Of a stretch of 64,000 nucleotides of DNA, positions 9,333 through 61,412 are shown in pieces. The stretch is from a virus. The position numbers and the translations under genes were made by a program. Within the stretch, counting starts at the first letter, position 1, and every line of letters begins with the position of its first letter. The stretch is from the IMG/VR virus record IMGVR_UViG_3300031963_000013; one strand, 5' to 3'. The notes under the pieces are model-generated. The model did not search any database. It was not told the DNA's origin and saw only the letters and a program-made list of their open reading frames with translations.

Positions 9333-9333
9333 T

Positions 9334-15907: not shown

Positions 15908-18160
15908 ATGAAAAGGTTAATTTTATTGGTTTTATTTTTTATCTGTTTCTCTCTTAGTAGCTTTTGTCAAGACACCGTATTCAATAGGACACTATCTGAA
16001 ATTACAATTTACCACACAGGAAAAAAATCAAGCGAAAATTCTGTTTTAACTTCCATACGTAACAACTCTTCGATATCGGATGGTTTATCAATAGAGTTCG
16101 TTAAAAAAACACCTGATAGAAGTTTGGGAGACGCTTTAAAAAGAATAAGCGGAGTTACAGTACAAAACGATAAGTTTGTATTGGTTAGAGGGTTGGCAGA
16201 TAGATACAACTCTGCGATGCTCAATAAAACCATGCTTCCGTCAACAGAACCAGACAGAAGAGCGTTCTCTTTCGATATCATACCAACAAACTTGATAGAC
16301 AATGTAGTTGTTAATAAATCAGCGTCGGCTAACCTACCGGGAGATTTTGCTGGCGGAGTTATTCAGGTTTCTACTAAAGAGGTTTCTAACAACTTTTTTA
16401 ACATTGGAATTGGAAGCGGATACGGGTTGATTTCGACAAATAAAAAATTCCAATTGGTTGATAAGATAGATTTTCCAACAAACTTCCCGTCAACTTACAA
16501 ATTTAGAACAGGCAGCAACGGAGATAAGAGAGCTTATACTAAGTTAATGCCTTCTCCACTGTCTGAAAGTTTTACTTCTCCTTTGAATGTAAACAGCAAT
16601 TTATCTATTGGAATAAAGAAAAAAAGTTTCAATCTATTATTTAGCTCAACCGCAAGGAACTCGTTTTCTTTAAATTACACAGATAGACAAGACTACCAGT
16701 CTTCAACAGAACTCGCCTACAAATACAAGGACACTTCATTTATAAACACAAAGTCTGTCAACGGGTTATTAAACATAACTTATCTAAATAAAAATAGGTT
16801 TAGTCTCAAAACCCTGTTCAATCATCAAGTAGAACAACTGTACTTAGTTCGTAGCGGAGATAACTTCGATAACTTACAAAGCGTAAGAAGCAATTCTTCT
16901 AACAACGTTATAAAAACCGTAATTAACACTCAATTTGATTCCAAAATTAAAAATTGGAACATTAATTTGGGACACAACCTCACTCTTAGAGATCAACCCG
17001 ACTATAGAATTAATCCAGTAACTAAATCTTTAAACTCAAACGAAAACTACTCTATTGCTTTTAGAGATACATACAGATTCTGGAGCATTATGAATGAAAA
17101 CAGTTTTAATTTTGGTGTAAACACTAATTTTAAAAACTTAAAAATAGGCGGAAGTTACGTTAACCGAGGCAGATCTTTCCAAGCTAGAGTTTTTAGGTAT
17201 GATTTTATAGACATGTTAAACGAAATAACGAACAATACTGATAGGTATAGTGCAAATTTTAACTTGCTTAGCAGCTATGCTATGATAGATAAAGACTATA
17301 AAAAGTGGAAATTTAACGTAGGAATTAGAAACGAATACAACGAATTTAAAGTAAATACAGCGGATTTTAGCGGAGATGGGATTGAAGTTTATAGAAAATA
17401 TTTTGATCCTTTACCGTCATTAAATGTTTCTTACAATCTAGCAAAAACAAAATATAGATTCTCTCTAAGCAAAACTCTTTCCAGACCAGAATTTAGAGAA
17501 GTAGCCAATTTTGCCTATTACGATTTTGTAAGAAACGCACAATTGCTTGGTAATTCTAATTTACAAAAAACTGACATATACAACTTGGATTTGAAGTACG
17601 AATTTTATCCAAAGACAGGAGAAAATGTGTCTGTTTCTGTGTTTGGTAAAAATTTTCTTAGACCGATAGAACAGATTGTGGCAGATGGTTCCGTACCTTC
17701 AAATTTGTTATTGACTTACACAAATCCAAAATCTGCAGTATTATACGGTATAGAATTTGATGTTCGTAAAAAAATAAGTAAGGCTTTTGATTTTTACATG
17801 AATTCATCTTTTGTCAATTCTAATGTTAGGGGATTGAATCGCCAGATGCAAGGACAATCAAACTACGTAATAAACGGAGGCTTAAACTTTCATAAAAAGA
17901 ATAATACGGTTAACGTAACTTATAACAGGGTCGGAGATAGAATATCAGCTGTTGGCTTTCAAGGTTACGACGATATATTTGAAAATTCTAGAAACGTAAT
18001 AGACTTTGTATACCTATATAAACTAAAAAATACAGAGTTTAAGCTTGCCGTAAGCGATATATTGGCCCAACCAACAGTATATTACCAAAAAACAAGGGGC
18101 GAATTAATTAAAACAAACAACGAACAAACCATTTCAATATCATTAAACATAAACCTATGA
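15908..18160 (+). CDS. TonB-dependent outer-membrane receptor
   Basis: Signal peptide; plug motifs DALKRISGVTV, VRGLADRYN, FDIIP, GDFAGG; barrel motifs SRPEFRE, GNSNL, N.DLKYEFY; alternating C-terminal strand. Confidence 0.9.
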   Translation: MKRLILLVLFFICFSLSSFCQDTVFNRTLSEITIYHTGKKSSENSVLTSIRNNSSISDGLSIEFVKKTPDRSLGDALKRISGVTVQNDKFVLVRGLADRYNSAMLNKTMLPSTEPDRRAFSFDIIPTNLIDNVVVNKSASANLPGDFAGGVIQVSTKEVSNNFFNIGIGSGYGLISTNKKFQLVDKIDFPTNFPSTYKFRTGSNGDKRAYTKLMPSPLSESFTSPLNVNSNLSIGIKKKSFNLLFSSTARNSFSLNYTDRQDYQSSTELAYKYKDTSFINTKSVNGLLNITYLNKNRFSLKTLFNHQVEQLYLVRSGDNFDNLQSVRSNSSNNVIKTVINTQFDSKIKNWNINLGHNLTLRDQPDYRINPVTKSLNSNENYSIAFRDTYRFWSIMNENSFNFGVNTNFKNLKIGGSYVNRGRSFQARVFRYDFIDMLNEITNNTDRYSANFNLLSSYAMIDKDYKKWKFNVGIRNEYNEFKVNTADFSGDGIEVYRKYFDPLPSLNVSYNLAKTKYRFSLSKTLSRPEFREVANFAYYDFVRNAQLLGNSNLQKTDIYNLDLKYEFYPKTGENVSVSVFGKNFLRPIEQIVADGSVPSNLLLTYTNPKSAVLYGIEFDVRKKISKAFDFYMNSSFVNSNVRGLNRQMQGQSNYVINGGLNFHKKNNTVNVTYNRVGDRISAVGFQGYDDIFENSRNVIDFVYLYKLKNTEFKLAVSDILAQPTVYYQKTRGELIKTNNEQTISISLNINL

Positions 18161-20246: not shown

Positions 20247-20657
20247 ATGACACAATTACAACATTGGGCAATGGACCCATTCGACATCATGTGGAAGAAC
20301 TTTTTTGACACAAGTTCCACATTCAACAGCATCAAGACAAAGATCAATTATCCCGTAGACATTTACGAAACAGACAGCGGACTTAGGTTCGAACTAGCCG
20401 TTGTAGGTTTAGAAAAGAAAGACCTAAAAATCCAAGTGGAAGGAAATACACTTAGAGTGATTCACGAAGGACTTGGTGAAACGGAGACACGTGAATACAT
20501 TCAACGAGGTATCGCAAGACGATCCTTCGACCTTGCTTGGAGAGTTGCAGACAAATTCAATCTCGCTAAACTCGAAGCTACGATGGAAAAGGGGCTTCTA
20601 ATACTGGATGTTCCAGCAGAGAAGACTAAAATCCTAAAAGAAATCGCCATCAACTAA
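20247..20657 (+). CDS. hsp20: Small heat-shock protein Hsp20
   Basis: YPVDIYE, ELAVVG, RGIARRSF, ATMEKGLL alpha-crystallin motifs. Confidence 0.92.
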   Translation: MTQLQHWAMDPFDIMWKNFFDTSSTFNSIKTKINYPVDIYETDSGLRFELAVVGLEKKDLKIQVEGNTLRVIHEGLGETETREYIQRGIARRSFDLAWRVADKFNLAKLEATMEKGLLILDVPAEKTKILKEIAIN

Positions 20658-20680
20658 AGCTAAGCCCGCCAAGTTAAGTT

Positions 20681-20872
20681 ATGTTATCTATTTGTAAAAA
20701 TTACATAAAAGTAAACGAATCTCTTTTTTACGTAAAACGTACCTGGCCAGAAGAAAGGATCAAGAACGTAGATCTAATAAAAGAGTGGCTTAACACAGAA
20801 ACGGTGTTTAAAAAAGACGGTATTATATACTTTTGTCAACAAATAGAGGATCTTGAAATAATAAACAATTAA
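20681..20872 (+). CDS. Hypothetical protein
   Basis: 63 aa ORF with AAGTTATG start in the chaperone operon. Confidence 0.6.
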   Translation: MLSICKNYIKVNESLFYVKRTWPEERIKNVDLIKEWLNTETVFKKDGIIYFCQQIEDLEIINN

Positions 20873-20884
20873 ACAAAAACAAAT

Positions 20885-21178
20885 ATGCAAAAATTAAAAC
20901 CACTAAATGGGATAGCCGTACTGAAGGTCGTCGAAGAAGAAGAGATGACTTACGGAAACATAGTTTTACCAGATATGGGTAAAGAACGTCCAGACATGGG
21001 AGAAGTTGTAGAGTGCAGTGACACCTATAATTGGCACAAAGGATCTTATTACGAAACCAAACTCAAACCAGGCCAAAGAGTGCTAATTCCAAAAATGGGT
21101 TCTATGAAAGTTAACGTAGACGGAGAAGATTACATATTAATCAAAGAAACAGAAATTTTAGCAATTTTAGAAAAATAA
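20885..21178 (+). CDS. groES: Co-chaperonin GroES
   Basis: LKPL, GNIVLPD..KE.P, GEVV, DGEDYILIKETEILA. Confidence 0.9.
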   Translation: MQKLKPLNGIAVLKVVEEEEMTYGNIVLPDMGKERPDMGEVVECSDTYNWHKGSYYETKLKPGQRVLIPKMGSMKVNVDGEDYILIKETEILAILEK

Positions 21179-21182
21179 AAAT

Positions 21183-22805
21183 ATGAGTACAACAAAATTT
21201 GTAAAAGGACAAGAACTTAAAGAGAAGTTACTTGCAGGTATAGAAAAACTAAACGACGCAGTTGGTTCTACGCTTGGTCCAGGAGGAAGAACCGTTTTGA
21301 TAAAAGAACTAAACGGAGAAACCAAAATTTCAAAAGATGGCGTATCTGTAGCTAAAAGCTTTGGCGAATTAGAGGATCCTATAGAAACGATTGGAGCAAA
21401 CTTAGTAAAACAAGTGAGTATCAAATCTGCTAACGAGGCCGGCGATGGAACAACAACCTCTACTATCATTGCAACTGAAATGATTAAGGAAGGTCTAAAA
21501 GAAATAAGACAGGGAACAAATGCTGTTGAAATTAAGAATCAGATAGATAGCATAGTTAGCGAAATCATAGATCAAATAAAAAATAAGTCTGTTGATATAG
21601 AATCAGAAGAGCAGATCAAACAAGTAGCTACTATCTCTGGTAACAACGACACAGAAATTGGAAGTCTTATCGCTACCGCTATTGACAAAGTTGGAAGAGA
21701 GGGCGTAATCACTTTAGAAGAGTCTAAAACTGGAGACACTCAATTGGAAGTTGTTGAGGGCATGCAGTTTGAAAGGGGTTACAAGAGTCCGTACTTTGTA
21801 ACAAACAACAACACAATGCAGTCTATTTTAGAAAATCCTTATATTTTACTATACGACGGTAAAATATCTACCGCTCAAGAGCTATTGCAGGTGATGACAA
21901 AGGTTAACTCTGAAAATAAACCGTTGCTTGTGATAGCTGAAGACTTTGGAGACGAAGCTTTAGCGACAATGATTGTTAACAAGATGCGTGGCATAGTTCA
22001 AGCGTGCGCTGTTAAAGCTCCTGACTTCGGAGAGCGAAAGACACTGATTTTAGAAGACATAGCTATCTTAACAGGCGGACAAGTACTTTCTAAAGACAAA
22101 GGACACAAGCTAGATAAACTTCCAGCCGGCCAGTTGAGTCAGTATTTGGGAACGTGTAGATTAGTAACAGTGTCAAAGGACGAAACAACCATCGTAGACG
22201 GAAAAGGGGATTTAGAAAAGATAGAAACTAGAGCAAAAGAAATAAAAGAGCAGATAGACAAAGCAACATCGTTCTTTGAAAAAGAGAAGCTACAAGAGAG
22301 ACTTGGTAAAATGATCGGCGGAGTTGCAATCATCAGCGTAGGCGGCAATTCAGAAGTAGAGATAAAAGAGAAGAAGGATAGATTAGAAGATTCGCTATAC
22401 GCGACAAAAGCTGCATTAGCTGAAGGTATCGTACCAGGAGGAGGAAGCATATTATACCAACTTTCTTTAAAATTAAAATCCGAAGACACAACAAGCGCTA
22501 GTGTGGCCAAAGAGATCGTTAGGAAAGCGATTCAAGCTCCATTTAAAAAGATACTATCAAACGCAGGAGTCGAGGATTGGTGGAATAAAGTGCCTAACGA
22601 AGGAGAAGTTTACGACGCTAAGAGCCACAGAATAGTAAATGGACTCGAAGCAGGCATCATAGATCCAGCTAAGGTTGTGATCACAGCTCTACGAAACGCA
22701 TCATCTGTAGCAGGCACAGTACTCACAACAGAAAGCGTAGTGTTTGAGAAGAAAGATAAAGATGAGAAAGCTGATCCGATGGCAGGAATGATGGGAGGAA
22801 TGTAA
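21183..22805 (+). CDS. groEL: Chaperonin GroEL
   Basis: TLGPGG, KDGVSVA, AGDGTTT, EGMQFERGY, GIIDP.KV, GGM tail. Confidence 0.97.
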   Translation: MSTTKFVKGQELKEKLLAGIEKLNDAVGSTLGPGGRTVLIKELNGETKISKDGVSVAKSFGELEDPIETIGANLVKQVSIKSANEAGDGTTTSTIIATEMIKEGLKEIRQGTNAVEIKNQIDSIVSEIIDQIKNKSVDIESEEQIKQVATISGNNDTEIGSLIATAIDKVGREGVITLEESKTGDTQLEVVEGMQFERGYKSPYFVTNNNTMQSILENPYILLYDGKISTAQELLQVMTKVNSENKPLLVIAEDFGDEALATMIVNKMRGIVQACAVKAPDFGERKTLILEDIAILTGGQVLSKDKGHKLDKLPAGQLSQYLGTCRLVTVSKDETTIVDGKGDLEKIETRAKEIKEQIDKATSFFEKEKLQERLGKMIGGVAIISVGGNSEVEIKEKKDRLEDSLYATKAALAEGIVPGGGSILYQLSLKLKSEDTTSASVAKEIVRKAIQAPFKKILSNAGVEDWWNKVPNEGEVYDAKSHRIVNGLEAGIIDPAKVVITALRNASSVAGTVLTTESVVFEKKDKDEKADPMAGMMGGM

Positions 22806-22856: not shown

Positions 22857-23738
22857 ATGTTCGAAAACAAGTGCACAACAAAAGAAAGCCTAGACGAAAC
22901 CAACGGTAGGAATCTAGAGTACTACCTAAACATAACCAAAGACTATAAACATAATTTTACATTCGTAACAAAAGACATAGATGGCTTTAAAGTCATAGAT
23001 GATGGAGAGTTTCAGTATGGGACTAAAGCTAAGATGGCAGATTTTTTTATATCCCAAATTAAGGAAGATTCAATGGTGTATTGCTGTCCGAGAACGGGAT
23101 ATGCTCCTTACTCTTTGTGTTACCTAGCCAAGAAGTACAACAAGAAACTGTACCTTGTAATGCCAGCCTCAGAGAAAGCGTCGGAACACCAACTCACAGC
23201 CATAGAAGAAGGCGGCATACCTTTGTTCGTAAGGATACCAGCGATGCCAACAGCAAACATATGGGCAAAGAAGTTCGCAGAAAAGATTGGAGCTAGGTTC
23301 CTTCCATTTGGTCTTAAGCACGAGATGGTTGTGGCAGGCGGTGTTAGAGTGTTCTACGATAACTTCAAAGACTCAAACATAGAAACGATGTGGTCTGTAT
23401 TCTCTACCGGGGTACTATCAAGAACTCTTCAGATAGCAATACCTAAAGCTGAATTCAACGCGGTAGCAGTAGCAAGAAACATTCAAGAGGGAGAATTAGG
23501 CAGAGCAAACTTCTACAGTTATGATAAGGCGTTCACCAAAAACTCAAGGATCACACCGCCTTTCGACTGCGTTCTCACCTACGACGCTAAAGGCTGGGAA
23601 ATGATCAAACAACACGGGAAACAAGGAGACTACTTTTGGAACGTGGCGCCGGCTATGAGAAAACCGAATCTAAAACCAAGCGACATAGACTCGAATAGGG
23701 CGTGGGGAGATTTCACAGATTTAGAGCGTGGTATTTAA
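22857..23738 (+). CDS. PLP-dependent enzyme, fold type II (PALP/TrpB-like)
   Basis: GTKAK (candidate PLP Lys), RTGYAPYSL..LA...K.YLVMP, FSTGVLSR, TYDAK, FWNVA. Confidence 0.65.
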   Translation: MFENKCTTKESLDETNGRNLEYYLNITKDYKHNFTFVTKDIDGFKVIDDGEFQYGTKAKMADFFISQIKEDSMVYCCPRTGYAPYSLCYLAKKYNKKLYLVMPASEKASEHQLTAIEEGGIPLFVRIPAMPTANIWAKKFAEKIGARFLPFGLKHEMVVAGGVRVFYDNFKDSNIETMWSVFSTGVLSRTLQIAIPKAEFNAVAVARNIQEGELGRANFYSYDKAFTKNSRITPPFDCVLTYDAKGWEMIKQHGKQGDYFWNVAPAMRKPNLKPSDIDSNRAWGDFTDLERGI

Positions 23739-23791
23739 AACATCTATTTAATTTATTTAATTTTTTATATATTTATATTAAATATAATACA

Positions 23792-24091
23792 ATGAGTCAA
23801 AGAGTACAAGAATCTAAATCTCCAAAAAGTAAAGGTTTTAAAGAAGTGTATACTGGAGAGTATAATCTTTTTTTAAAGAAACATAGCGGATACGATGATG
23901 AATATTTAATAATTATTATGATTGGAGATAATGAAGTAGATACACAAATGATAGTGCGTGGAGACGGAAGAGTTGTTGGGTCTACTGGGTGTGATTGTAC
24001 AATGTTTTTTCAAGCAATATCTAAAGATATGGTTAAAAATCTAAAAAAATATGACTTGAAAAAAATGTCAAAAAACTTAAAACAGACTTAA
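23792..24091 (+). CDS. Hypothetical protein (AT-rich insert)
   Basis: ATG 23792 follows TATTTATA at 23770; own terminator downstream. Confidence 0.55.
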   Translation: MSQRVQESKSPKSKGFKEVYTGEYNLFLKKHSGYDDEYLIIIMIGDNEVDTQMIVRGDGRVVGSTGCDCTMFFQAISKDMVKNLKKYDLKKMSKNLKQT

Positions 24092-24124
24092 TAAGTCTAT
24101 AAGCTAAAATCACTTAATTGTTTT

Positions 24125-24149
24125 AAAGCATCTTTATGGTGCTTTTTTT
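24125..24149 (+). terminator. Intrinsic terminator
   Basis: AAAGCATC-loop-GGTGCTTT followed by T-run. Confidence 0.7.
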
Positions 24150-24214
24150 ATGACTTTAAAAAGTACTGCGATTTTTGATTTTACCAGTTCACTACTATTT
24201 AGTAAATTGCTGTT

Positions 24215-24586
24215 ATGGTGTTAGCTATAATAGGAAGTCGGTCATTTAACGATATGGAACTTTTAGAGGAAAAGCTTTCTGAGTACGTAGGAAAAGCCAC
24301 TAGAGTAGTTAGCGGTGGAGCTAAAGGAGCAGATTCTTTGGCAGAAAGATGGGCATTCAGACACGGATGCGATCTTTCAATTCACTTACCGGACTGGAAA
24401 AAACACGGTAAAAAGGCCGGATTCATTAGGAATATTGAGATAATAAACGAGTGCGATGAGTGCGTAGCTTTTTGGGACGGTAAGAGTAGAGGCACACACC
24501 ACTCAATATTTATGTGTAACAAGCTTAACAAAAAAGTAACAATAGTAGAGTATGAAAAAATTGATAGAGGGAATAAGATACAATAA
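24215..24586 (+). CDS. SLOG-fold protein (DUF2493/YspA-like)
   Basis: AIIGSRSF, VSGGAKGADSLA, AGFIRN, AFWDGKSRGT. Confidence 0.85.
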   Translation: MVLAIIGSRSFNDMELLEEKLSEYVGKATRVVSGGAKGADSLAERWAFRHGCDLSIHLPDWKKHGKKAGFIRNIEIINECDECVAFWDGKSRGTHHSIFMCNKLNKKVTIVEYEKIDRGNKIQ

Positions 24587-25301
24587 AGAGAGCGATAAGT
24601 TCGAATTCGTGTGGAATGATGATGCTCCTGGTGATCTTGTCAATCTAAAATTACAGAGGTACAACAAGCTGTTATCCACAAAGGATGGCAACAAAGTGTA
24701 TTACGCGTATAAGATAGATAGCGCTCAAAAGGATCAAAGTGCTCTTTTAAGAAAAAGCATAAAGTACATGGACACGAAAGTAAACCGTGAAGATGTGGAA
24801 TTGATGATCTCTAAAGCTGTTGTTAACTTTAATGCCCTATCTCCGCTTTCTAACTACGATCTTATCATAACCCCTAAGAGTACTTCAAACGTATTGGATC
24901 TATTAAAGAACTTCATACACGCTAAGGCAGGAAGTAATACGCTGCTATATTCTGACGTATTTGTAAAGAACACAGTAGACAACATTCAATTTGACGAAGA
25001 GAAGCTAAACAAATTGCCACAAGACAAGCGTGATAAAATAGTTTTGATACTAAATAAAGTCTTCAGTAAACAGGACTATAAGATTAAATCTTTGCCTCCC
25101 AGATTCAGAAAGTATGTAATGAATTTTTTAAAGTTTAATACAGAAGTAGAGAAGAGGCTAATGAACAAGATAATCGGAGGTAAAATACTGTTGGTAGACG
25201 ATATATTGACCGAGGGTACAACTATAAAAAGTATGTCAAATCTTCTAAAAAGCGTTAATGCACTCGACGTAACCTCTTTTGTACTATTAACCAATAAATA
25301 A
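24552..25301 (+). CDS. Phosphoribosyltransferase-fold protein
   Basis: C-terminal PRPP-binding loop KILLVDDILTEGTTI; IITPKST. Confidence 0.7.
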   Translation: MKKLIEGIRYNKESDKFEFVWNDDAPGDLVNLKLQRYNKLLSTKDGNKVYYAYKIDSAQKDQSALLRKSIKYMDTKVNREDVELMISKAVVNFNALSPLSNYDLIITPKSTSNVLDLLKNFIHAKAGSNTLLYSDVFVKNTVDNIQFDEEKLNKLPQDKRDKIVLILNKVFSKQDYKIKSLPPRFRKYVMNFLKFNTEVEKRLMNKIIGGKILLVDDILTEGTTIKSMSNLLKSVNALDVTSFVLLTNK

Positions 25302-25353
25302 TTACTAAAAACTATTAGTACGAATTCAAAAAAATATTTAGTAAATTACAGTT

Positions 25354-25629
25354 ATGAAACAGAATAGCATACTACAACAAGCACACGAGATTGTATTCGA
25401 ACGCGGTGAAGAGAAGGAACGCCAATATGGACCTTTTGAAGAAGGCATGGAACAAACAGCTAGAATAGCTTCCGAAATGTCAAGAAAAGAACTAACAGCT
25501 TTCGACGTATACAATGTTCTTATAGCTCTTAAACTATCTAGAGCTTCTTGGAATTACAAAGAAGACAACTATCTAGACGCAGTTGCATACATGGCATCGT
25601 TAGACAAGTATCTATCAAACAAAAAATAA
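25354..25629 (+). CDS. DUF6378-like all-alpha nucleotide pyrophosphohydrolase candidate
   Basis: ILQQA..IV...ERQYG, LKLSR, DNYLDAVAY. Confidence 0.65.
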   Translation: MKQNSILQQAHEIVFERGEEKERQYGPFEEGMEQTARIASEMSRKELTAFDVYNVLIALKLSRASWNYKEDNYLDAVAYMASLDKYLSNKK

Positions 25630-25635
25630 ACAGTT

Positions 25636-25911
25636 ATGACTTACACACTTACATTTCTTGGGGTTGCAATTACCCTGTTCTTGGCCGATGTATTTTGGGC
25701 CCTATATTTCATTAAGATCGAAGAGAGAAACAGCCTGATGTCAGGAGTATACGGATCACTAATCTATTTATTTGGTGCATTCGCAGTTACCCAATACACA
25801 GAAGACAAAAGCTTCATCATTGCTGCAGTTCTTGGAGCTTTCTTAGGAACATATGTAACAGTTGAATGGAAAAGAAGAAAAGACAAAAAAGAAAAAACAA
25901 CAAACGTATAA
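25636..25911 (+). CDS. Small membrane protein
   Basis: Three hydrophobic segments. Confidence 0.65.
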   Translation: MTYTLTFLGVAITLFLADVFWALYFIKIEERNSLMSGVYGSLIYLFGAFAVTQYTEDKSFIIAAVLGAFLGTYVTVEWKRRKDKKEKTTNV

Positions 25912-25912
25912 C

Positions 25913-26350
25913 ATGAAAATTAAAAAAATCAGAGACGTAAAGACGCCTTCCAGAGGCACACCAGACAGCGCAGGCATAGACTTCTATATTCCTGATGATT
26001 ATATTACGCAAGCTAAAACGCTGCACCCAGGTGAATCGGTGCTGATCCCAAGCGGTATTAAAGCGAATGTACCTGATGGATACGGACTTGTAGCTATGAA
26101 TAAGAGCGGTGTAGCCACAAAGCAAGGCTTGACCTACGGCGCCCAGTTGGTGGACCCAGATTATACAGGAGAGATACATATACATGTCTTCAACGTATCT
26201 GATAAACCGCAGACCATTCAACCTGGTCAGAAGATCATGCAGTTTGTCCTCATTCCAATCAACTTCGAAAACGTAGAACTAGTAGATGAGTTACCAGAAA
26301 AACAAACAACAAGAGGCGATAAAGGGTTTGGAAGTACGGGAGTCTTCTAA
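25913..26350 (+). CDS. dut: Trimeric dUTPase
   Basis: SAGIDF, KSG, VDPDYTGEI, KIMQ, RGDKGFGSTG. Confidence 0.95.
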   Translation: MKIKKIRDVKTPSRGTPDSAGIDFYIPDDYITQAKTLHPGESVLIPSGIKANVPDGYGLVAMNKSGVATKQGLTYGAQLVDPDYTGEIHIHVFNVSDKPQTIQPGQKIMQFVLIPINFENVELVDELPEKQTTRGDKGFGSTGVF

Positions 26351-26756
26351 GCAACAAAGATTGGACAGCGTTTACATGGCCATGGCTTTGGCCGTGTCTA
26401 CGCTTTCTCACTGCAAACGAAGCCAAGTGGGTGCCATACTCGAAAAGGGGCAAAACATAATAAGTATGGGGTATAACGGCACCCCAAGCGGAATGGATAA
26501 TTGTTGCGAAGATGAAGACAACAATACGAAACCCATTACACTACACGCCGAAATGAATGCAGTTATTAAGGCAGCAAAGACTGGAAACTCGGTACAAGAC
26601 TCAACTCTTTACATCACACTCGCGCCCTGTATAGAGTGTGCCAAATACCTATTGCAATCCGGAATCCAGAGAGTTGTATATTTACAGGACTACAGGAATA
26701 TGTCGGGAGTAGAACTATTAAAACAATTCATAAAAGTAGAAAAGCATGATAAATAA
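26286..26756 (+). CDS. dCMP deaminase (start uncertain)
   Basis: VGAIL, GYNG, HAEMNA, PCIECAK. Confidence 0.93.
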   Translation: MSYQKNKQQEAIKGLEVRESSKQQRLDSVYMAMALAVSTLSHCKRSQVGAILEKGQNIISMGYNGTPSGMDNCCEDEDNNTKPITLHAEMNAVIKAAKTGNSVQDSTLYITLAPCIECAKYLLQSGIQRVVYLQDYRNMSGVELLKQFIKVEKHDK

Positions 26757-27393
26757 TAACATATACAAGAATCCAACAGAAGCGTTTGAGCAAGCTTACC
26801 ACTACATAAATTCGTACGGTAAGTTCTTTGCAGGAACCAAAGCCATGTTCAATGCATCTTTCAGCGTATTGAATCCATTGGATAACGTAATCAAAACAGA
26901 AGTTAGAAAGTTCAATCAAGGGTACGCAGACTACGAATGGGATTGGTATCTCAAAGGCGATAGAGACGCATCAGAAATATCAGAAAGAGCAAAGATATGG
27001 AAGAACATGATGATACCAGGTACTACAAACGTCATTAGTAACTATGGATCTTTTTGGAATAAAAATGGCCAGTTAGACAGAATGGTTAACGAGCTTAAGA
27101 ATAATCCAAGCACAAGAAGAGCTGTGTTGGTTCACTACGACCCCAACGAATTGGATCTATACCAATACGATACGCCGTGCAACCTGGTTCTTAACTTCTA
27201 TCTCGAGGATGATAGGTTAGAATTGACAGTGTTTGCAAGATCTATAGACTTGTGGTTCGGGTATTGTAACGATCAGTATTGCTTCTCAAAGTTAATGCAG
27301 TTGGTATCAGAAAGAACTGGTTACCAAGTTGGCAAAATGCATTGGGCAATCACTAATCTCCATTTGTACGAGAGACACTGGAACAAACTATAA
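26746..27393 (+). CDS. Thymidylate-synthase-fold enzyme with dCMP hydroxymethylase-type signature
   Basis: TRRA, catalytic PC, RSIDLWFGYCND (Asp at the ThyA N177 position), NLHLY. Confidence 0.75.
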   Translation: MINNNIYKNPTEAFEQAYHYINSYGKFFAGTKAMFNASFSVLNPLDNVIKTEVRKFNQGYADYEWDWYLKGDRDASEISERAKIWKNMMIPGTTNVISNYGSFWNKNGQLDRMVNELKNNPSTRRAVLVHYDPNELDLYQYDTPCNLVLNFYLEDDRLELTVFARSIDLWFGYCNDQYCFSKLMQLVSERTGYQVGKMHWAITNLHLYERHWNKL

Positions 27394-27408
27394 AAACAAA
27401 TAAAGGTT

Positions 27409-27861
27409 ATGACAATCAGATTAAGCAGAGAGTTTTTAGAAGAACAGTTGGCAAAACTAACTCCAACTTCCTACAATCCATATTATTGGCACAGGAGATA
27501 CAAATCAAAAGAAGAGCTAAGTAACAAGTATCCGCTATACGAGAGGATAGCGCACGGAGACTTCGATCATTCTGAGTACTACTATCAAGCTGAATACGAG
27601 ATGTATCTACTAGAAGATAAACTAAAGACTTGTAAAAACGTAGACGAAGAGCACGACGCTAGAGGTTTGTTTATGGAAAGGCGTAGAAAGTTGATAGCAG
27701 ATTACGAGAAAGAAGAAGCTAAGCGAATGGATAAACTAAAGTCCTCTTTCGTTAAAACTTTTAAGATAAACAAAGATCTACTAGAATCTATTATGGAAAA
27801 CTTTGAAGGGGATTTGTTAGATTTATACCAATACATAAAAACAAAAAAATATGAACAGTAA
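27409..27861 (+). CDS. Hypothetical protein
   Basis: 150 aa ORF with GGTTATG start. Confidence 0.6.
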   Translation: MTIRLSREFLEEQLAKLTPTSYNPYYWHRRYKSKEELSNKYPLYERIAHGDFDHSEYYYQAEYEMYLLEDKLKTCKNVDEEHDARGLFMERRRKLIADYEKEEAKRMDKLKSSFVKTFKINKDLLESIMENFEGDLLDLYQYIKTKKYEQ

Positions 27862-28090
27862 CCCAAGTTCACCGAAACTGAACATCACAATAGACAAGAC
27901 CACAGGTGTTGTTTGCGAAGAGTGTGGATGCAATGTATTCACAGAAGTGCTTATGCTAAGAAAGGCTTCCAAGTTTATAACAGGCACAGCGCAAGATGCA
28001 TTGATCCCAATTCCAGTGTTTGCATGCGCAAAGTGCAAGCACATCAACAAAGATATGCTATCTCCCGATCTTAAAAACGTAGAGGAGTAA
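27851..28090 (+). CDS. Zn-ribbon protein
   Basis: CEEC...CAKC. Confidence 0.65.
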   Translation: MNSNPSSPKLNITIDKTTGVVCEECGCNVFTEVLMLRKASKFITGTAQDALIPIPVFACAKCKHINKDMLSPDLKNVEE

Positions 28091-28093
28091 ATT

Positions 28094-28354
28094 ATGGGAG
28101 ATTATAGAAGCGAAACAGGTTTTACGACTTTGAATGGCAACAATTCTAGAACAATACTAAAAACTGATTCTATAGTTGACTCTGTGATTGATTCTTTCGT
28201 AGATAGATCAAGGATAGGGAAAGAAAAGTACGGTACCGATTTAGATAGAAGCGACCTTAGTCTTTACGATTGGATAGAACACATGCAAATGGAATTGCAA
28301 GATGCAATACTGTACTTAGAAAAAATTAAAAAGGTTATAGGTGGAAAAAACTAA
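28094..28354 (+). CDS. Small MazG-like all-alpha NTP pyrophosphatase candidate
   Basis: RSRIGKEKYG...WIEHMQMELQDAILY. Confidence 0.5.
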   Translation: MGDYRSETGFTTLNGNNSRTILKTDSIVDSVIDSFVDRSRIGKEKYGTDLDRSDLSLYDWIEHMQMELQDAILYLEKIKKVIGGKN

Positions 28355-28404
28355 ACTAGAAATTCACTTGTTATATGGAACTACGCATATTTATTATAAA
28401 CAAT

Positions 28405-29163
28405 ATGCAAATTTATAAAACAACTAACTTAGTAAATTCAAAGATCTATATAGGAAAAGACGTTAAAGCTAGACCAAGTTATCTAGGATCTGGATTAGCA
28501 CTAAAATCTGCTATTAAAAAGTATGGAGCTGAACTCTTTAAGAAAGAAGTGTTAGAGGATAACATAATTGATAAGTCTGTATTAGCTAGTAGAGAGAAGT
28601 ATTGGATAGCTTATTATAATTCTAACAATCCGAATATAGGTTACAATCTAACAAAGGGCGGAGATGGAGGAGATGTTTGTATAGGTAGAGTTACTATAAA
28701 TAAAGATAACGTGGAAAAGAAAGTGGCTAAAAGTGAATTAGAGTTTTATATAAATAATGGATGGAAGTTGGGATTAACAGAAGATCATAAATTAAATTGT
28801 AGTATTGGTCGCAAAGGCAAGGGTTTAGGAAAAGATAATGGAAATTATGGAAATCCCACAGGATTTAAAGGAAATGCTACATCTTTCAAACCAGGAGAAT
28901 TACACCCGATGTATAATAAAAAACAAAGTATAGACACTATTAATAAAAAAATTGAAACTAAAAGAAAAAACGGCACTTTATCAAATAACGGTTCAGAAAA
29001 AAGAAAAAAACCTATATTACAATACGATTTAAGCCACAATTTTGTAAAAGAGTGGTCGGGAGTTAGAGAAGCGATGAATGCATATAATCAAGCTAGAGTA
29101 GGCGACGTAGCAAATGGAAATGCTAAAACTGCAGCTGGATATTATTGGAAATGGAAAAATTAA
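28405..29163 (+). mobile_element. Free-standing GIY-YIG homing endonuclease with NUMOD-type DNA-binding repeats
   Basis: QIYKTTN..KIYIG, YLGSG, REKYWI, GYNLTKGGDG, HPMYNKK, PILQYDL, TAAGYYW; own TATTTAT at 28388. Confidence 0.9.
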
Positions 29164-30352: not shown

Positions 30353-31795
30353 ATGCTAGAAGGTTACATTGAAAAATCAAAAAGAAAAAAGATATTGTTG
30401 ATGGGAGACGATCTTAGGATGCACTCCGGTATCGCAACAATGTCAAGAGAAATCGTGTTAGGTACCGCTCACAGATTCAATTGGGTAAATTTAGGTGCCG
30501 CAATCAACCATCCAGATTTTGGTAAAAGGCTGGATCTATCACAAGACACAAACAATGTTACAGGTTTGAGCGACAGTAGCGTTATGCTGTACCCGTCAAA
30601 CGGTTACGGAACGCCAGAAGTAGTTAGACAACTTTTGGAGATAGAAAAACCAGACGCTATAATGCTTTTCACAGACCCGAGATATTGGATCTGGTTTTTT
30701 CAAATGGAAAGCGAGATAAGAAAGAAAATACCTGTAATTTACTACCACATATGGGACGATTATCCAGCGCCATTGTACAATTCTCCTTACTACGAATCTT
30801 GCGATTTACTCATGGGAATATCGAAGCAAAGTAAACTTATTAGCGAATTAGTGCTTGGAGATAAAATCAAAGGAAAAATATCCACTTACGTTCCTCACGG
30901 AATAAACGAAAAGTACTTTTACCCGATAAATGAATTCATGGTAGAAGACTATAAAAAATTGCAAGATGAAAAAAAGGCGATTTTTGGAGAAGACATTCCA
31001 GAGTTTGTTGTGTTTTACAACGCAAGAAACATCAGAAGAAAGTGTACATCTGATCTCATAGCAGCTTATTCTGTATTCTGTGATAAAATAGGAAAAGAAA
31101 AAGCAAAGAAGTGCGCTTTATTGTTACACACCCAAGCTATTGATGAAAACGGAACGAACTTAAACGCAGTAACAGAATTGCTCTGCGATCCTGAGTATCA
31201 AAAAGTAAAATTCGTACAACACTCGCTACCCACGGATGCCATCAACAGGCTTTATAACATGGCAGACGTTACGGCTCTAATTAGCTCTAACGAAGGTTGG
31301 GGACTATCTTTAACCGAATCGATGATGGCTGGCAGAATGATCATAGGCAACGTGACTGGAGGAATGCAAGATCAAATGAGGTTCGAAGATGAAAAAGGTA
31401 AATGGGTCAATCTAACCAAAGACTTTCCTTCAAACCACTACGGCAGATACAAAAAGTGCGGTAAATGGGCAGTACCAGTTTTTCCAACTAATTTAAGCCT
31501 TGTTGGATCGATACCAACTCCTTACATATTCGATGATAGATGTGATTTTAGAGACGTTGCTAAAGCTATAGAAGACATTTACAACATGTCACCTGAAGAG
31601 AGACAAGAGCGCGGGCTGGCAGGAAGGGATTGGGTTACTTCAGAAGAGTCAATGATGAGCTCAAAAAACATGTGCAATAACGTTATATTTTCTATAGAAA
31701 CAACATTCAAGAGTTGGAAACCAAAGAGCAAATTTGAACTCATAAAGATAGAAAAATTACCAAGAAAACAAATAAAACACAAACTAGTATACTAA
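30353..31795 (+). CDS. Glycosyltransferase GT-B (GT4-like)
   Basis: VPHGI, NARNIRRK, NEGWGLSLTESMMAG. Confidence 0.88.
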   Translation: MLEGYIEKSKRKKILLMGDDLRMHSGIATMSREIVLGTAHRFNWVNLGAAINHPDFGKRLDLSQDTNNVTGLSDSSVMLYPSNGYGTPEVVRQLLEIEKPDAIMLFTDPRYWIWFFQMESEIRKKIPVIYYHIWDDYPAPLYNSPYYESCDLLMGISKQSKLISELVLGDKIKGKISTYVPHGINEKYFYPINEFMVEDYKKLQDEKKAIFGEDIPEFVVFYNARNIRRKCTSDLIAAYSVFCDKIGKEKAKKCALLLHTQAIDENGTNLNAVTELLCDPEYQKVKFVQHSLPTDAINRLYNMADVTALISSNEGWGLSLTESMMAGRMIIGNVTGGMQDQMRFEDEKGKWVNLTKDFPSNHYGRYKKCGKWAVPVFPTNLSLVGSIPTPYIFDDRCDFRDVAKAIEDIYNMSPEERQERGLAGRDWVTSEESMMSSKNMCNNVIFSIETTFKSWKPKSKFELIKIEKLPRKQIKHKLVY

Positions 31796-31797
31796 AT

Positions 31798-33111
31798 ATG
31801 AAACCGTTATGCGTAATAAGCGCTCCAATAGACACTGCTAGTGGATACGGAGCCAGAGCCAGAGATTTTGTTAAAGCTCTATATGAATTGAAAAAAGATC
31901 AGTGGGAAATAAGATTGCTCTCACAGAGATGGGGTTCAACTGCTTGGGGATACATACAAGAACACGAATCAACGTGGGGTTTTTTAAACAATCTTATGTT
32001 GCCAAACAACCAACTCACAAGACAACCCGATTACTGGTTTCAGATTACTGTACCTAACGAATTTCAAAGAGTTGGAAAGCTAATGAATGTCGGATTGACA
32101 GCTGGAATAGAAACAACAATATGTCATCCGTCTTGGGTAGACGGGGTTAATAGAATGGACTTAACTCTAGTGTCTTCTGAGCACGCCAAAAACGTTTTTA
32201 AAAACTCACAATTCGAAGAGAGAGATCAACAGAACAATCTGAAGAGGAAGATATCCTTGGAAAAACCAGTAGAGGTGCTCTTCGAGGGACTTGACTTGAG
32301 TAGGTTTTTCTATATCGATGATAAAGACATACCTAAAACAGAAATAGCAGAATCTTTAAAACAAATTAACGAAGAATTTAATTACCTATTTGTTGGCCAC
32401 TGGTTGCACGGAGATAACGGAGAAGACAGAAAGAACATCTCAGGATTGATAAGGTTGTTTTTAGAAACATTCAAGAACAAGAAGAAACGTCCTGGTTTGA
32501 TTCTAAAAACCACAAAGGTAGCTAACAGCGTGATGGACAGAGATGAAATCTTGGAAAAAATAGAGAGCATAAGAAACTCTATCAATTCGAACGATTTACC
32601 GAACATATATCTACTTCATGGAGATCTTAATGAAGAGGATATGAACATAGTTTACAACCACCCGAAAGTGAAAGCTATGGTGTATTTTGGACACGGCGAA
32701 GGTTTTGGTAGACCACTACTAGAGTTTTCGATATCTAAGAAACCCATTATAGCATCGGGCTGGTCGGGCCATCTAGATTTTCTTAACAACGAGTATTGCG
32801 TTCTAATACCGGGAGAATTAAAAAACATTCATCCATCTGCGGTAGTAGAAAACATATTGATACCAGAATCCCAGTGGTTTAAAGTGGATGAAAAAGTTGC
32901 AAAAAAGTCTATGGAACAAGTCTACGAGAATTATAGCAAAGTAGTTTCTGAAAAATCCAGCAGACAATCCTATTACGTAAAGAGCAATTTTTCTTTTGAA
33001 AAAATGACTGAGAAACTTATGAACTACGTGGATGCTTTTCCAAAACCGGTAGAAGTAAAGCTTCCTACTCTCAAGAAAATTGAATTACCTTCTTTAAAAA
33101 AAATAGGATAA
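31798..33111 (+). CDS. Glycosyltransferase GT-B (GT4-like)
   Basis: SGYG, DRKN, GEGFGRPLLE, PIIASGWSGHLDF. Confidence 0.88.
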   Translation: MKPLCVISAPIDTASGYGARARDFVKALYELKKDQWEIRLLSQRWGSTAWGYIQEHESTWGFLNNLMLPNNQLTRQPDYWFQITVPNEFQRVGKLMNVGLTAGIETTICHPSWVDGVNRMDLTLVSSEHAKNVFKNSQFEERDQQNNLKRKISLEKPVEVLFEGLDLSRFFYIDDKDIPKTEIAESLKQINEEFNYLFVGHWLHGDNGEDRKNISGLIRLFLETFKNKKKRPGLILKTTKVANSVMDRDEILEKIESIRNSINSNDLPNIYLLHGDLNEEDMNIVYNHPKVKAMVYFGHGEGFGRPLLEFSISKKPIIASGWSGHLDFLNNEYCVLIPGELKNIHPSAVVENILIPESQWFKVDEKVAKKSMEQVYENYSKVVSEKSSRQSYYVKSNFSFEKMTEKLMNYVDAFPKPVEVKLPTLKKIELPSLKKIG

Positions 33112-33112
33112 C

Positions 33113-33340
33113 ATGAAAGACAAACACTTTGTAATATGGTTGAAGGGTTTCGTAACAGCTTGTCACAGTCATTTACCAACCCCTGCTCAGTGGGATCAAT
33201 TGGTAGAAAAACTAAACACTGTTAAGAGCGAGGGCGATAAACAAACACAAGATGATTGTTTGGCTCCAACTCTGGCTTCTTACTACTACTCGACAAACAC
33301 CAATCAAATAGCAAAAAGTAAAAAGATATTACATGACTAA
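33113..33340 (+). CDS. Hypothetical protein
   Basis: 75 aa coupled ORF. Confidence 0.55.
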   Translation: MKDKHFVIWLKGFVTACHSHLPTPAQWDQLVEKLNTVKSEGDKQTQDDCLAPTLASYYYSTNTNQIAKSKKILHD

Positions 33341-33785
33341 ACAAAAAACAGATTCATTGATTGATTGCCCGTTATGCAAAGAAAAATTCGCTTGTTATTC
33401 CATAAAGATGAATGAGAATAAAAACACCTACCTTTGCTTGGGGTGTGGCTACCAATCAAACGATCTCATGAAACAGGGAGATTTTGACGAAGAGCAATAC
33501 GAACAAGAAATGCCTGAGTTGTATAAAGACTTAAAGAGATTGGACGAAGAAAACAGGGTTTGGTATCCGTCTGTGGTGAATATTCAAGAAAAGGGCACAG
33601 TATTTGTTAATGGCACTTGTAAAGAAGACGCTAGATGGTCGGCGATAAAGAGCGTTGAATTGACAGAAGAAGAAAAACAAAAACCCATGTTCAAGGATAA
33701 AACTCACAAATCAGACTCATCAACTCTAAAGGACTTTGGATCAGATTATCTGAGCTGTCTAGAATATATTGGGATAGATGTGTAA
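33333..33785 (+). CDS. Zn-ribbon hypothetical protein
   Basis: CPLC...CLGC. Confidence 0.6.
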   Translation: MTKQKTDSLIDCPLCKEKFACYSIKMNENKNTYLCLGCGYQSNDLMKQGDFDEEQYEQEMPELYKDLKRLDEENRVWYPSVVNIQEKGTVFVNGTCKEDARWSAIKSVELTEEEKQKPMFKDKTHKSDSSTLKDFGSDYLSCLEYIGIDV

Positions 33786-33794
33786 AATTATAAT

Positions 33795-34415
33795 ATGGCA
33801 ACAATATCTTACGCGATTCCTGTTTGTAACGAACACGAAGAATTAGATAAACTACTGACTCTTTTAATTAAGTGTAAAAGAAAAGAAGACGACATAGTTA
33901 TACAGTGCGATCAAGGAAATACAACAAAACAGGTGTATGAAGTTATATCAAAACACAGTGATCACGTAAAAGTTGTGGAGTTTCCTCTTAAAGGAGATTT
34001 CGCAAGTTTTAAGAACAATCTAAAAAAACATTGTGTAGCAGATTGGATATTTCAAATAGACGCAGACGAACTACTGCACGAAGTATTTCTAGAAAATTTG
34101 CCTGAAATACTGGAAAATAATCCTGAAGTACAACTGTTTTGTCTTCCAAGAATTAACACCGTTGAAGGATTGACTCAAGACCACATAAACAAATGGGGAT
34201 GGAGCGTTAACGAGAAAGGTTGGGTTAATTTCCCAGATGTTCAAACTAGAATAATCCAAAATTCTCCAAAAATACAGTGGGTTGGTAAAGTACACGAAGT
34301 GATATATGGGCACAGTTCACAAGCAGTTTTACCAATTGAAGAGGCGTACTGTATACTACATCACAAACACATTCGTAGACAAGAAATTCAAAATACGTTG
34401 TACTCAATGATATGA
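33795..34415 (+). CDS. Glycosyltransferase family 2
   Basis: IPVCNE, WIFQIDADE, PDVQTR, VHE. Confidence 0.88.
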   Translation: MATISYAIPVCNEHEELDKLLTLLIKCKRKEDDIVIQCDQGNTTKQVYEVISKHSDHVKVVEFPLKGDFASFKNNLKKHCVADWIFQIDADELLHEVFLENLPEILENNPEVQLFCLPRINTVEGLTQDHINKWGWSVNEKGWVNFPDVQTRIIQNSPKIQWVGKVHEVIYGHSSQAVLPIEEAYCILHHKHIRRQEIQNTLYSMI

Positions 34416-34461
34416 AAAAAGCTTCAATAACTAGAGTATAATAAAATAAAAAAACATAGTT

Positions 34462-34716
34462 ATGGTAAATCAAGAAACATACCAAGATCAAGAGAGAGTT
34501 TATACAGAGATAAGACAAAGATACTGTTTGCACAATTGGGTATTTCACTACAACCCGTTTACAGAATTATGGAACGCGATACACCGTGATAGATATGTTG
34601 ATTATTGGTATAATACAAATTCAAATTACGTACTAAAAAGCACCCAAATATACACACTAGTAGATTTGATTTTAAAGATTGAAAACAATAAATTAAATTT
34701 AGAAGACATAAAATAA
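34462..34716 (+). CDS. Hypothetical protein
   Basis: 84 aa ORF with AGTTATG start. Confidence 0.55.
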   Translation: MVNQETYQDQERVYTEIRQRYCLHNWVFHYNPFTELWNAIHRDRYVDYWYNTNSNYVLKSTQIYTLVDLILKIENNKLNLEDIK

Positions 34717-34723
34717 TCGCATA

Positions 34724-37747: not shown

Positions 37748-37748
37748 T

Positions 37749-43569: not shown

Positions 43570-43570
43570 A

Positions 43571-46637: not shown

Positions 46638-46638
46638 G

Positions 46639-60455: not shown

Positions 60456-60497
60456 ATATTCTTTACAGTTTAGGGGGAATTCAGTACATTTACCCTT

Positions 60498-61395: not shown

Positions 61396-61412
61396 CTAAA
61401 ACAATAAAAGTT

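Follow-up and report, generated by a model that had tools for sequence, protein, structure and literature searches.

In the T-even phages the pathway to 5-hydroxymethylcytosine (hmC) DNA comprises gp42, the cd dCMP deaminase, the gp56 dCTPase/dUTPase, td, the gp1 kinase and glucosyltransferases. To our knowledge, the amino-acid-type DNA hypermodifications known so far are all on thymine and are all begun by a DNA kinase. Thymidine hypermodification pathways have been described for phages M6, ViI, PaMx11, SP10 and PhiW-14, and M6 gp52 and ViI gp226 have been shown biochemically to be decarboxylases of DNA-bound amino acids; the characterised PLP enzymes of the gp52 type all use 5hmdU derivatives (PMC8989533). 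TS homologues with Asp177 and a changed residue 147 have been reported from environmental contigs enriched for fully modified cytosine, in the company of domains of dCMP deaminases and all-alpha NTP pyrophosphatases (PMC8670742), and the N177D change by itself converts ThyA to a dCMP methylase (cited in PMC8670742). In this enzyme family N177D goes with dCMP as substrate and L143D/E with a hydroxymethyl product, while D169N is the mark of the 5-hydroxy-dCMP synthases (PMC13326640).

The stretch of DNA analysed here (the window, 64,000 nucleotides) belongs to a large, uncultured phage from water, an Immutovirus-like myophage of about 160-190 kb, the host of which is probably a member of the Bacteroidota. 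Our tentative reading of the region described below is that it holds the nucleotide half, and one tailoring enzyme, of a cytosine-replacement/hypermodification pathway. Its genes are:

22857-23738, + strand: divergent fold-type II PLP enzyme, 293 aa (phrog_7093 at 1e-22)
24215-24586, + strand: SLOG-fold YAcAr (YspA-like) protein (PF10686 at 3.4e-16)
24552-25301, + strand: 249-aa protein with a C-terminal PRPP-binding (phosphoribosyltransferase/ComF-like) motif (PF00156 at 2e-07, residues 202-248)
25354-25629, + strand: DUF6378 four-helix protein (PF19905 at 3e-13)
25913-26350, + strand: trimeric dUTPase (PF00692 at 7e-22; NCBIfam dut, 102.3 bits)
26286-26756, + strand: dCMP deaminase (PF00383 at 2.3e-24; phrog_174 at 1e-51)
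26746-27393, + strand: TS-fold synthase, 215 aa (Pfam PF00303, E 2.4e-24)
27409-27861, + strand: conserved 150-aa protein downstream of the synthase (homologue in 26 of 42 related loci)
27851-28090, + strand: 79-aa Cys-rich protein, CEECGC...CAKCKH (homologue in 19 of 42 related loci)
28094-28354, + strand: predicted two-helix protein, 86 aa (PHROGs of unknown function only)

The synthase contains the motif RSIDLWFGYCND, which aligns with RSNDVVFGFRND of T4 gp42, ARSNDMALGNPFN of B. subtilis ThyA and RSCDVFLGLPFN of E. coli ThyA. These alignments place an Asp at the site of ThyA Asn177, as the initial annotation of this DNA had claimed. The pattern RS.D......ND and the PC nucleophile are kept in all of the 120 nearest homologues (65-97% identity, 210-219 aa), and Asp177 is thus not due to chance or a sequencing error. 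Another Asp lies three residues ahead of the catalytic Cys, at the ThyA Leu143 site (YDTPC, versus ALAPC in E. coli and SDFMC in T4), an assignment that rests on an ungapped count from the Cys since the MAFFT alignment is gapped at that column. Asp169 is retained (RSID), an Asn occupies the ThyA H147 site, and the equivalents of C146, R126, R127, R166, S167, E58, Y94, H207 and Y209 of ThyA are conserved. The C-terminal tail of ThyA, which closes the active site for hydride transfer, is absent, and the protein stops just past the HLYERH block. The combination D143/D169/D177 is the published signature of 5-hydroxymethyl-dCMP synthases, and on these residues we predict that the enzyme is of this type, and neither a ThyA nor a 5-hydroxy-dCMP synthase. 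As D169N is absent, flavin-dependent hydroxylation is not predicted.

The same conclusion, a dCMP-type enzyme rather than ThyA, had been drawn in the initial annotation with a phylogeny proposed as a check, and the tree is in line with it. In it, ThyA groups with the dUMP hydroxymethylases in a single clade (support 93/88), and the clade of the window's synthase, T4 gp42 and VPE25 all fall outside this group. Furthermore, two of five related contigs (G002 and G003) encode both a short Asp-type synthase and a separate canonical, full-length ThyA, which matches the ThyA profile end to end in both; the G002 sequence reads Asn (RSVDTFLGLPFN). No second ThyA or ThyX was found in G001, a relative that is 82% complete.

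The locus resembles T4 in having a TS-fold enzyme with the Cys, an Asp at the L143 site, Asp169 and Asp177, a dCMP deaminase partner and a dUTP-cleaving enzyme, as well as in its AT-rich genome and a separate ThyA (here in related genomes). It differs in the synthase itself, which shares only 28% identity with gp42 and lacks about 30 residues of its length, in that no gp56-type dCTPase, gp1-type kinase or alpha/beta-glucosyltransferase was recognised here, and in that the window's companions are the PLP enzyme and DUF6378. The clustering of the synthase with a dCMP deaminase and a dUTPase, pointed out earlier, holds: both are Pfam matches, and the dUTPase, deaminase and synthase genes overlap head to tail, the deaminase gene overlapping the end of the dUTPase gene and the start of the synthase gene. 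For the dUTPase, the ATG at 25913, directly past an upstream stop, is a likelier start than the TTG at 25862 of the listed ORF. The deaminase is present in 36 of the 42 related loci, and where relatives lack the dUTPase, their cluster encodes a MazG, dUTPase_2 or PRA-PH enzyme. The family searches revealed neither a dNMP kinase nor a dCTPase.

The proteins at 25354 and 28094 had been put forward as all-alpha pyrophosphatases that could play the part of the T4 gp56 dCTPase. The all-alpha prediction agrees with the structural models, while the assignment as pyrophosphatases found no match in the family searches: neither protein matches MazG, PRA-PH or dUTPase_2 in Pfam, NCBIfam or PDB sequences, which leaves the gp56-like role unsupported, and Pfam gives DUF6378 only for the former and nothing for the latter. 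The AF2 model of the DUF6378 protein is a confident four-helix protein (pLDDT 88) with no MazG, HisE or dimeric dUTPase match in structure comparison, the best matches being generic helical bundles with Z below 7. This protein is the most constant companion of the synthase (40 of 42 loci and the independent lineage L055), and it adjoins or is fused with MazG in one locus (L018). The 28094 protein, with a low-confidence two-helix AF2 model (pLDDT 61), has homologues in 12 of 42 loci, and D25, D29, D33, E67 and D70 are invariant in its family.

The PLP enzyme gave no Pfam, NCBIfam or direct PDB match, but a profile of its family (A2) matches cysteine synthases and serine dehydratases in the PDB (E 1e-8), with the Schiff-base Lys aligned to the Lys of the KDR motif, and Lys57 is invariant in the family (n=63 sequences). 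The enzyme proposed at 22857 is thus real, though divergent. The earlier comparison with the ViI and M6 decarboxylases is likewise borne out. The profile aligns with M6 gp52 over 221 columns (hhalign probability 98.6%, E 1e-15), K57 is aligned to K36 of gp52, and both proteins have the C-terminal block PFP..YD.K.W..FWN; these alignments mark the enzyme as homologous to the decarboxylases M6 gp52 and ViI gp226. The locus thereby shares with M6 and ViI a homologous PLP enzyme with an aligned Schiff-base Lys, and the predicted logic of making a hydroxymethyl-pyrimidine first and tailoring it once in DNA. Unlike these pathways, the predicted base is a cytosine and not a uracil, and no 5-hmdU DNA kinase, Pfam-recognisable ADDT or radical SAM isomerase is found here. 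In agreement with the statement in the initial annotation that the window holds no base kinase or DNA amino-acid transferase, neither the 5-hmdU DNA kinase nor a known amino acid:DNA transferase gave a tblastn match in the window, and PF18748 (5-hmdU DNA kinase) and PF18724 (ADDT) had no match in the five related contigs.

Of the 42 synthase loci, 28 carry the PLP gene. It also stands beside Asp-type synthases in lineages whose replication genes are unrelated or were not seen, as in L055, where PolA is unlike that of the window and the synthase and PLP enzyme are 42% and 44% identical to the window's, and in L056, with a synthase only 28% and a PLP enzyme 40% identical. The co-occurrence across phages that had been named as a possible point of refutation therefore speaks for the pairing, which is kept in unrelated lineages. 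In one related group (L038-L043) the fetched locus contains the synthase but no PLP gene, and more distant PLP homologues adjoin DNA methylases and not synthases. In relatives and in unrelated phage lineages, the PLP gene is flanked by two unannotated families, here called X and Y, most relatives having the order X-Y-PLP, X-PLP or Y-PLP; these would take the place of the kinase and transferase of M6 and ViI. X is SGNH-like, by motif only. For Y, no similarity could be detected to the M6 gp51 transferase, to Pfam or to PDB sequences, and in one group the synthase and a Y-like domain are joined in a single ORF of 604 aa. A language-model search, to be read as a lead only, placed Y with clusters of which 13-36% of the members carry PF18723 (HMUDK_hel), and PF18724 (ADDT) occurs in 12% of the members of one cluster. 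Neither family was found within the 64-kb window, and the window's closest subgroup is also without them: L032, L033 and L045 have the PLP gene and lack both X and Y, and L031 has neither X nor Y.

Taken together, the locus may represent a probable kinase-less hmC hypermodification pathway, the chemistry of which is predicted only. Judging from residues and the T4 paradigm, the dUTPase and dCMP deaminase would supply dUMP for dTMP, made by the host ThyA or by a phage ThyA elsewhere in the genome, and the synthase would convert dCMP and methylene-tetrahydrofolate to 5-hydroxymethyl-dCMP, which would be phosphorylated and incorporated in phage DNA. Homology and gene association suggest that, after replication, the 5hmC in DNA would be activated and receive an amino-acid-like group, possibly through X (with its SGNH-like motifs) and Y, encoded outside the window. 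The PLP enzyme would then decarboxylate this adduct or trim it in another way, in the manner of M6 gp52 and ViI gp226 on thymine adducts. The route would involve no DNA kinase, and DUF6378 would be an obligatory companion. Since an hmC gene set lies beside a PLP enzyme of the adduct-trimming type, the phage DNA probably carries a chemically undescribed cytosine decoration. It is tempting to go further and to speculate that X, of SGNH type, activates the 5hmC hydroxyl in DNA, for instance by acylation, that Y, either very remotely related or analogous to the amino acid:DNA transferases, then introduces an amino acid by exchange, that the gp52-like enzyme decarboxylates it to leave an aminoalkyl-type substituent on cytosine, and that DUF6378 assists 5hm-dCMP synthesis as a new accessory factor. 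A route of this kind, widespread among phages of aquatic habitats and leading independently of a kinase to an undescribed cytosine base derived from an amino acid, is rather doubtful when all of these roles are taken jointly.

Several other explanations should be considered. The DNA may contain plain 5hmC, or 5hmC with another decoration, with the PLP enzyme serving an unrelated role, for instance in nucleotide or amino-acid metabolism with its SLOG and PRTase-like neighbours. This is somewhat improbable; it would fit with the lack of X and Y in the window and its closest subgroup, with a locus (L054) in which a SLOG gene also adjoins the PLP homologue (in the order PLP homologue, 161 aa, YAcAr), and with the methylase contexts of the distant homologues. 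However, the nearest characterised homologue, M6 gp52, acts on DNA adducts, the PLP gene stays beside Asp-type synthases across unrelated lineages, and both the YAcAr gene, an insertion specific to this genome, and the PRTase-like gene are absent from all 42 related loci. The textbook order of a dTMP supply route could also suggest an ordinary operon of dUTPase, dCMP deaminase and ThyA with an unrelated PLP gene nearby, but the invariance of Asp177 in 120 homologues, the separate canonical ThyA in relatives and the position of the window's clade outside that of ThyA make this highly improbable.

That the synthase is a dCMP methyltransferase, leading to 5-methylcytosine DNA as in Xanthomonas phage XP12, or to dTMP once the adjacent deaminase has acted on 5-methyl-dCMP, is quite unlikely. 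N177D suffices to make ThyA a dCMP methylase (cited in PMC8670742), the deaminase gene overlaps that of the synthase, and G001 is without a second ThyA or ThyX; yet the L143 site is an Asp, as in T4 gp42 and MilA, and not a bulky hydrophobic residue, the ThyA tail is missing, and the PLP, X and Y companions would have no use for a methyl group. The tight coupling of deaminase and synthase, by gene overlap and in 36 of 42 loci, would also suit deamination of 5hm-dCMP to 5hm-dUMP and a final hypermodification of the thymine type found in M6 and ViI, where the characterised gp52-type enzymes all work. This we consider very unlikely, as neither PF18748 nor PF18724 occurs in the window or the five related contigs, as the direct route would run through a dUMP hydroxymethylase, and as modules that combine a TS homologue and a dCMP deaminase come specifically from contigs enriched in modified cytosine (PMC8670742).

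The preferred reading, a cytosine-directed pathway, brings the locus close to the 5hmC carbamoyltransferase cassettes detected by MetaGPA (PMC8670742), with an Asp177 TS homologue and a dCMP deaminase in environmental phages, an all-alpha NTP pyrophosphatase (here in relatives) and a decoration of the 5hmC hydroxyl, predicted in our case; unlike these cassettes, it has no carbamoyltransferase, and the tailoring enzyme is a PLP enzyme. It likewise resembles the 5-hydroxy-dCMP synthases of RB69 and DLP3, which operate with arabinosylation, in N177D, an acidic L143 site and a TS homologue that is predicted to feed DNA hypermodification, but the diagnostic D169N is absent, RSID keeping the Asp, and the sugar island shows no link to the module (PMC13326640 for comparison). 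The glycosyltransferase island downstream of the module is found also in Flavobacterium phage immuto, which has no synthase module, and the sugar alternative raised in the initial annotation thus gains no support from it.

If the cytosine-directed pathway is correct, cytosine would join thymine as a substrate of amino-acid-type chemistry, with an activation step that dispenses with a kinase, and the module would predict a new natural DNA base, with effects on restriction and CRISPR evasion, on sequencing and metagenome recovery biases, and on the enzyme toolbox for DNA labelling. DUF6378, X and Y would gain a testable context. Both enzyme families, the synthase with 909 database proteins and the PLP enzyme with 737 representative clusters, are plentiful in public metagenomes, where they occur on phage contigs of up to 187 kb, so the modification could be common in nature. 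As to the remaining genes, the 27409-27861 protein has no family match in Pfam, PHROGs or NCBIfam, and the protein at 24552-25301 has further weak NCBIfam PRTase/ComF matches. The CEECGC...CAKCKH pattern of the 27851-28090 protein, read by eye, suggests a zinc ribbon.

The synthase encoded at 26746-27393 is a TS-fold protein of 215 amino acids. When its block RSIDLWFGYCND is aligned with RSNDVVFGFRND of the T4 dCMP hydroxymethylase gp42 and RSCDVFLGLPFN of E. coli ThyA, an aspartate occupies the Asn177 site (ThyA numbering). The nucleophilic cysteine, the phosphate-binding arginine and serine and the equivalents of Glu58, Tyr94, His207 and Tyr209 are retained, and so is Asp169; the His147 site holds an asparagine, and in the motif YDTPC an aspartate stands three residues before the cysteine, at the site which is Leu143 in ThyA and Asp in T4. 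Both the Asp and the Cys are conserved in every one of the 120 closest homologues in the database (210-219 aa). According to the diagnostic residues of a 2026 study, N177D indicates dCMP as substrate, L143D/E a hydroxymethyl product, as in T4 and MilA, and D169N the flavin-dependent 5-hydroxy-dCMP synthases of RB69 and DLP3 (PMC13326640). These criteria make the window enzyme a predicted 5hm-dCMP synthase; a 5-hydroxy-dCMP synthase is rejected, because Asp169 is kept. In a 2021 study, in which environmental phage DNA was selected for fully modified cytosine, the two most discriminating TS positions were Asp177 and an altered residue 147, and domains of dCMP deaminase and all-alpha NTP pyrophosphatase were found alongside those TS homologues (PMC8670742).

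The phylogenetic tree unites ThyA with the dUMP hydroxymethylases in one clade (support 93/88), and the window clade, T4 gp42 and the VPE25 enzyme, whose gene adjoins a beta-glucosyltransferase gene, all fall outside it, the deep branching order of these Asp types not being resolved by the tree. Two TS-fold paralogues with a dut gene between them (9159-9920 and 11992-12672) are found in the 53-kb gut phage BF486P2 of Bacteroides (locus L002). Asp occupies the Asn177 site in both; one shares 46% identity with the window enzyme, and the other is very divergent. The window itself holds no second TS gene. A search for a second ThyA or ThyX in five related IMG/VR contigs gave no ThyX in any of them, and two of the five carry the short Asp-type gene together with a full-length ThyA matched by the profile from end to end. 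The full-length copy that was read, in contig G002, is of the Asn type (RSVDTFLGLPFN) and lies 2 kb from the Asp-type gene. The presence in relatives of an Asp-type synthase and a separate ThyA matches the division of labour in T4 between td and gene 42. Our confidence is fairly high that 5hm-dCMP would be synthesised before replication, in the T4 fashion.

The companions of the synthase gene were counted at 42 related loci, all carrying the synthase: DUF6378 is present at 40, the dCMP deaminase at 36, the PLP gene at 28 and the dUTPase at 19. The deaminase gene overlaps the start of the synthase gene by 11 bases and is itself overlapped at its start by the dUTPase ORF; in relatives without dUTPase, a MazG, dimeric-dUTPase or PRA-PH enzyme takes its place in the cluster. 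Two further families, called X and Y here, accompany the PLP gene in most relatives, in the order X-Y-PLP, X-PLP or Y-PLP according to profile searches. Neither is near the module in the window or its nearest subgroup (loci L031-L033 and L045), where the PLP gene is present in the window, L032, L033 and L045 and absent from L031. The association extends to distant phages. Locus L055, a 44-kb phage whose PolA has no similarity to that of the window, has the order DUF6378, a 274-aa protein, X, Y, PLP, dUTPase and synthase (RSNDLWYGFCND, KDTPC); at L056 a synthase just 28% identical to that of the window is found with deaminase, dimeric dUTPase, UDG, X, Y and PLP, and L057 has Y, PLP and PRA-PH.

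The identification of the product of 22857-23738 as a PLP enzyme rests on profiles, since as a single sequence it has no match in Pfam, NCBIfam or PDB, and its BLASTP match to the PLP decarboxylase gp52 of phage M6 is no more than marginal. It matches phrog_7093 "threonine dehydratase" (1e-22), and a language-model search points to Trp-synthase-beta-like PLP enzymes. An exhaustive search gave 737 representative relatives. Lys57 is invariant across an alignment of 63 sequences, and the family profile matches cysteine synthases and serine dehydratases (E 1e-8) with this lysine aligned with the catalytic one. Against gp52, hhalign gives a probability of 98.6% and E 1e-15 over 221 columns, with Lys57 opposite gp52 Lys36, the residue proposed to form the internal aldimine; biochemical work has established that gp52 and its ViI counterpart gp226 decarboxylate glycine or serine on thymine in DNA (PMC8989533). 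The likeness to phage hypermodification decarboxylases, drawn as an analogy in the initial annotation, is on this profile evidence a real homology.

Homologues of the PLP protein at up to 37% identity occur as fusions with, or neighbours of, N6/N4 DNA methylases, Eco57I-type methylases and 2OG dioxygenase-like and cap-methyltransferase-like domains. The family looks like a general module for the tailoring of nucleic-acid adducts, and these fusions and neighbours may mark further undescribed nucleic-acid modifications. The gp52-like PLP domain has such partners repeatedly, in proteins P0289, P0293, P0303, P0305, P0327, P0339, P0350, P0358 and P0386 and at loci L005, L006, L058 and L059, where they also include Asp/Arg-hydroxylase-like dioxygenase, PCIF1-like, VP39-like and cap-guanine-N2 methyltransferase-like domains, and ParB/sulfiredoxin genes. 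In the window genome only, an insertion of a SLOG (YAcAr) gene and a ComF/PRTase-like gene (24215-25301) separates the PLP gene from DUF6378; at L054, too, a PLP homologue is followed by a YAcAr gene.

Members of family X have 311-329 aa and the motifs GDSHS and GNIDIRHH; a PDB profile search was empty, and the two members scanned had no Pfam match below E 0.1. Members of family Y have 319-348 aa and the motifs Y.GTNA and ED..C..D. Pfam was empty for all 23 of them, as was the PDB profile search, and hhalign with either 4 or 23 sequences gave no similarity to gp51, the amino acid:DNA transferase of M6. A feature search puts Y beside clusters with PF18723 (HMUDK_hel) in 13-36% of their members and, for one cluster, PF18724 (ADDT) in 12%; we regard this as a lead and not a result. 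The PLP gene is absent from the loci L038-L043 as fetched. At L038-L041, where X is present in the fetched locus, the C-terminus of the synthase continues without a stop into a Y-like domain, the fused frame being about 600 aa long (604 aa at L040:9983-11794); at L042 and L043 a Y-like frame lies directly downstream of the synthase. This fusion ties Y to the predicted product of the synthase.

Pfam searches of the five related contigs gave no PF18724 (ADDT) or PF18748 (5-hmdU DNA kinase, HMUDK) gene, and no Lipase_GDSL_2, HhH-GPD or thymidylate kinase. The pathway, if real, would use neither the known kinase nor the known transferase. After replication, the DNA would be tailored without a kinase and with participation of the gp52-like PLP enzyme; this second part of the reading, after 5hm-dCMP synthesis, rests on homology and gene association. 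No PLP pathway based on hmC is described in the literature searched.

Of the two small proteins, the DUF6378 protein at 25354 is modelled confidently as a four-helix structure, for which Foldseek found no match in PDB at E <= 0.001 and VIA-align wide gave generic helical matches only; hhalign gave no relation to the 28094 family, and the literature searched holds annotation mentions only. At locus L018, DUF6378 is in one frame with a MazG domain, which shares 84% identity with the L004 MazG. This joining shows DUF6378 as a companion of a pyrophosphatase, from which it does not follow that it is one itself. In the 86-aa protein at 28094, acidic residues are conserved along two predicted helices, and its structure model is too poor for use. 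The initial annotation had described a candidate cytosine hypermodification module of dCMP-type synthase, PLP enzyme and two all-alpha pyrophosphatase candidates; its observation is confirmed with the exception of the pyrophosphatase labels.

The window has a G+C content of about 36%, and its genes all lie on the + strand. The replication genes are gp32-like, UvsX-like, 5'-3' exonuclease, DnaB, class II RNR and PolA. Other features are as follows.

15908-18160, + strand: TonB-dependent-receptor-like protein, 750 aa, with Plug and outer-membrane beta-barrel domains, between PolA and the chaperone genes
20247-22805, + strand: consecutive Hsp20, GroES and GroEL genes
Downstream of the module, + strand: PD-(D/E)XK nuclease gene, followed by the sugar island
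30353-47925, + strand: 17-kb sugar/glycosyltransferase island, first part common to immuto; GT1, several GT2, GT34- and GT10-like domains, DegT aminotransferase, 4,6-dehydratase-like SDR, acetolactate-synthase-like TPP enzyme, two HpcH aldolases, 4Fe-4S protein, epimerase, FkbM methyltransferase
61803-62615, + strand: DUF932 gene

No near-identical phage record was found for the window. Its nearest cultured relative is the 160-kb Flavobacterium phage vB_FspM_immuto (PolA identity 53%), which has GroES, GroEL, nuclease and sugar island in the same order, and metagenomic relatives reach 180-187 kb. The sugar island was considered as a source of hmC decoration. In immuto, the block of GT1, GT, GT2 and aminotransferase follows the PD-(D/E)XK nuclease as in the window, the synthase/PLP module is absent at that place and the PLP gene is absent altogether; immuto has a 7-deazaguanine system (DpdA/Que genes) and an Asn-type ThyA. 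Because the block is conserved in a phage without the module there, the island is no evidence for glycosylated hmC, and this role was rejected.

Immuto and the metagenomic relatives also have the Hsp20/GroES/GroEL block conserved. An ORF of 262 aa between module and nuclease (28375-29163), found in just 4 of the 42 relatives and without Pfam match at E 0.001, has an N-terminus resembling a GIY-YIG homing endonuclease (KIYIGK...). At 60001-64000 the G+C content rises from about 0.35 to 0.47, and this stretch may have been inserted as foreign or mobile DNA.
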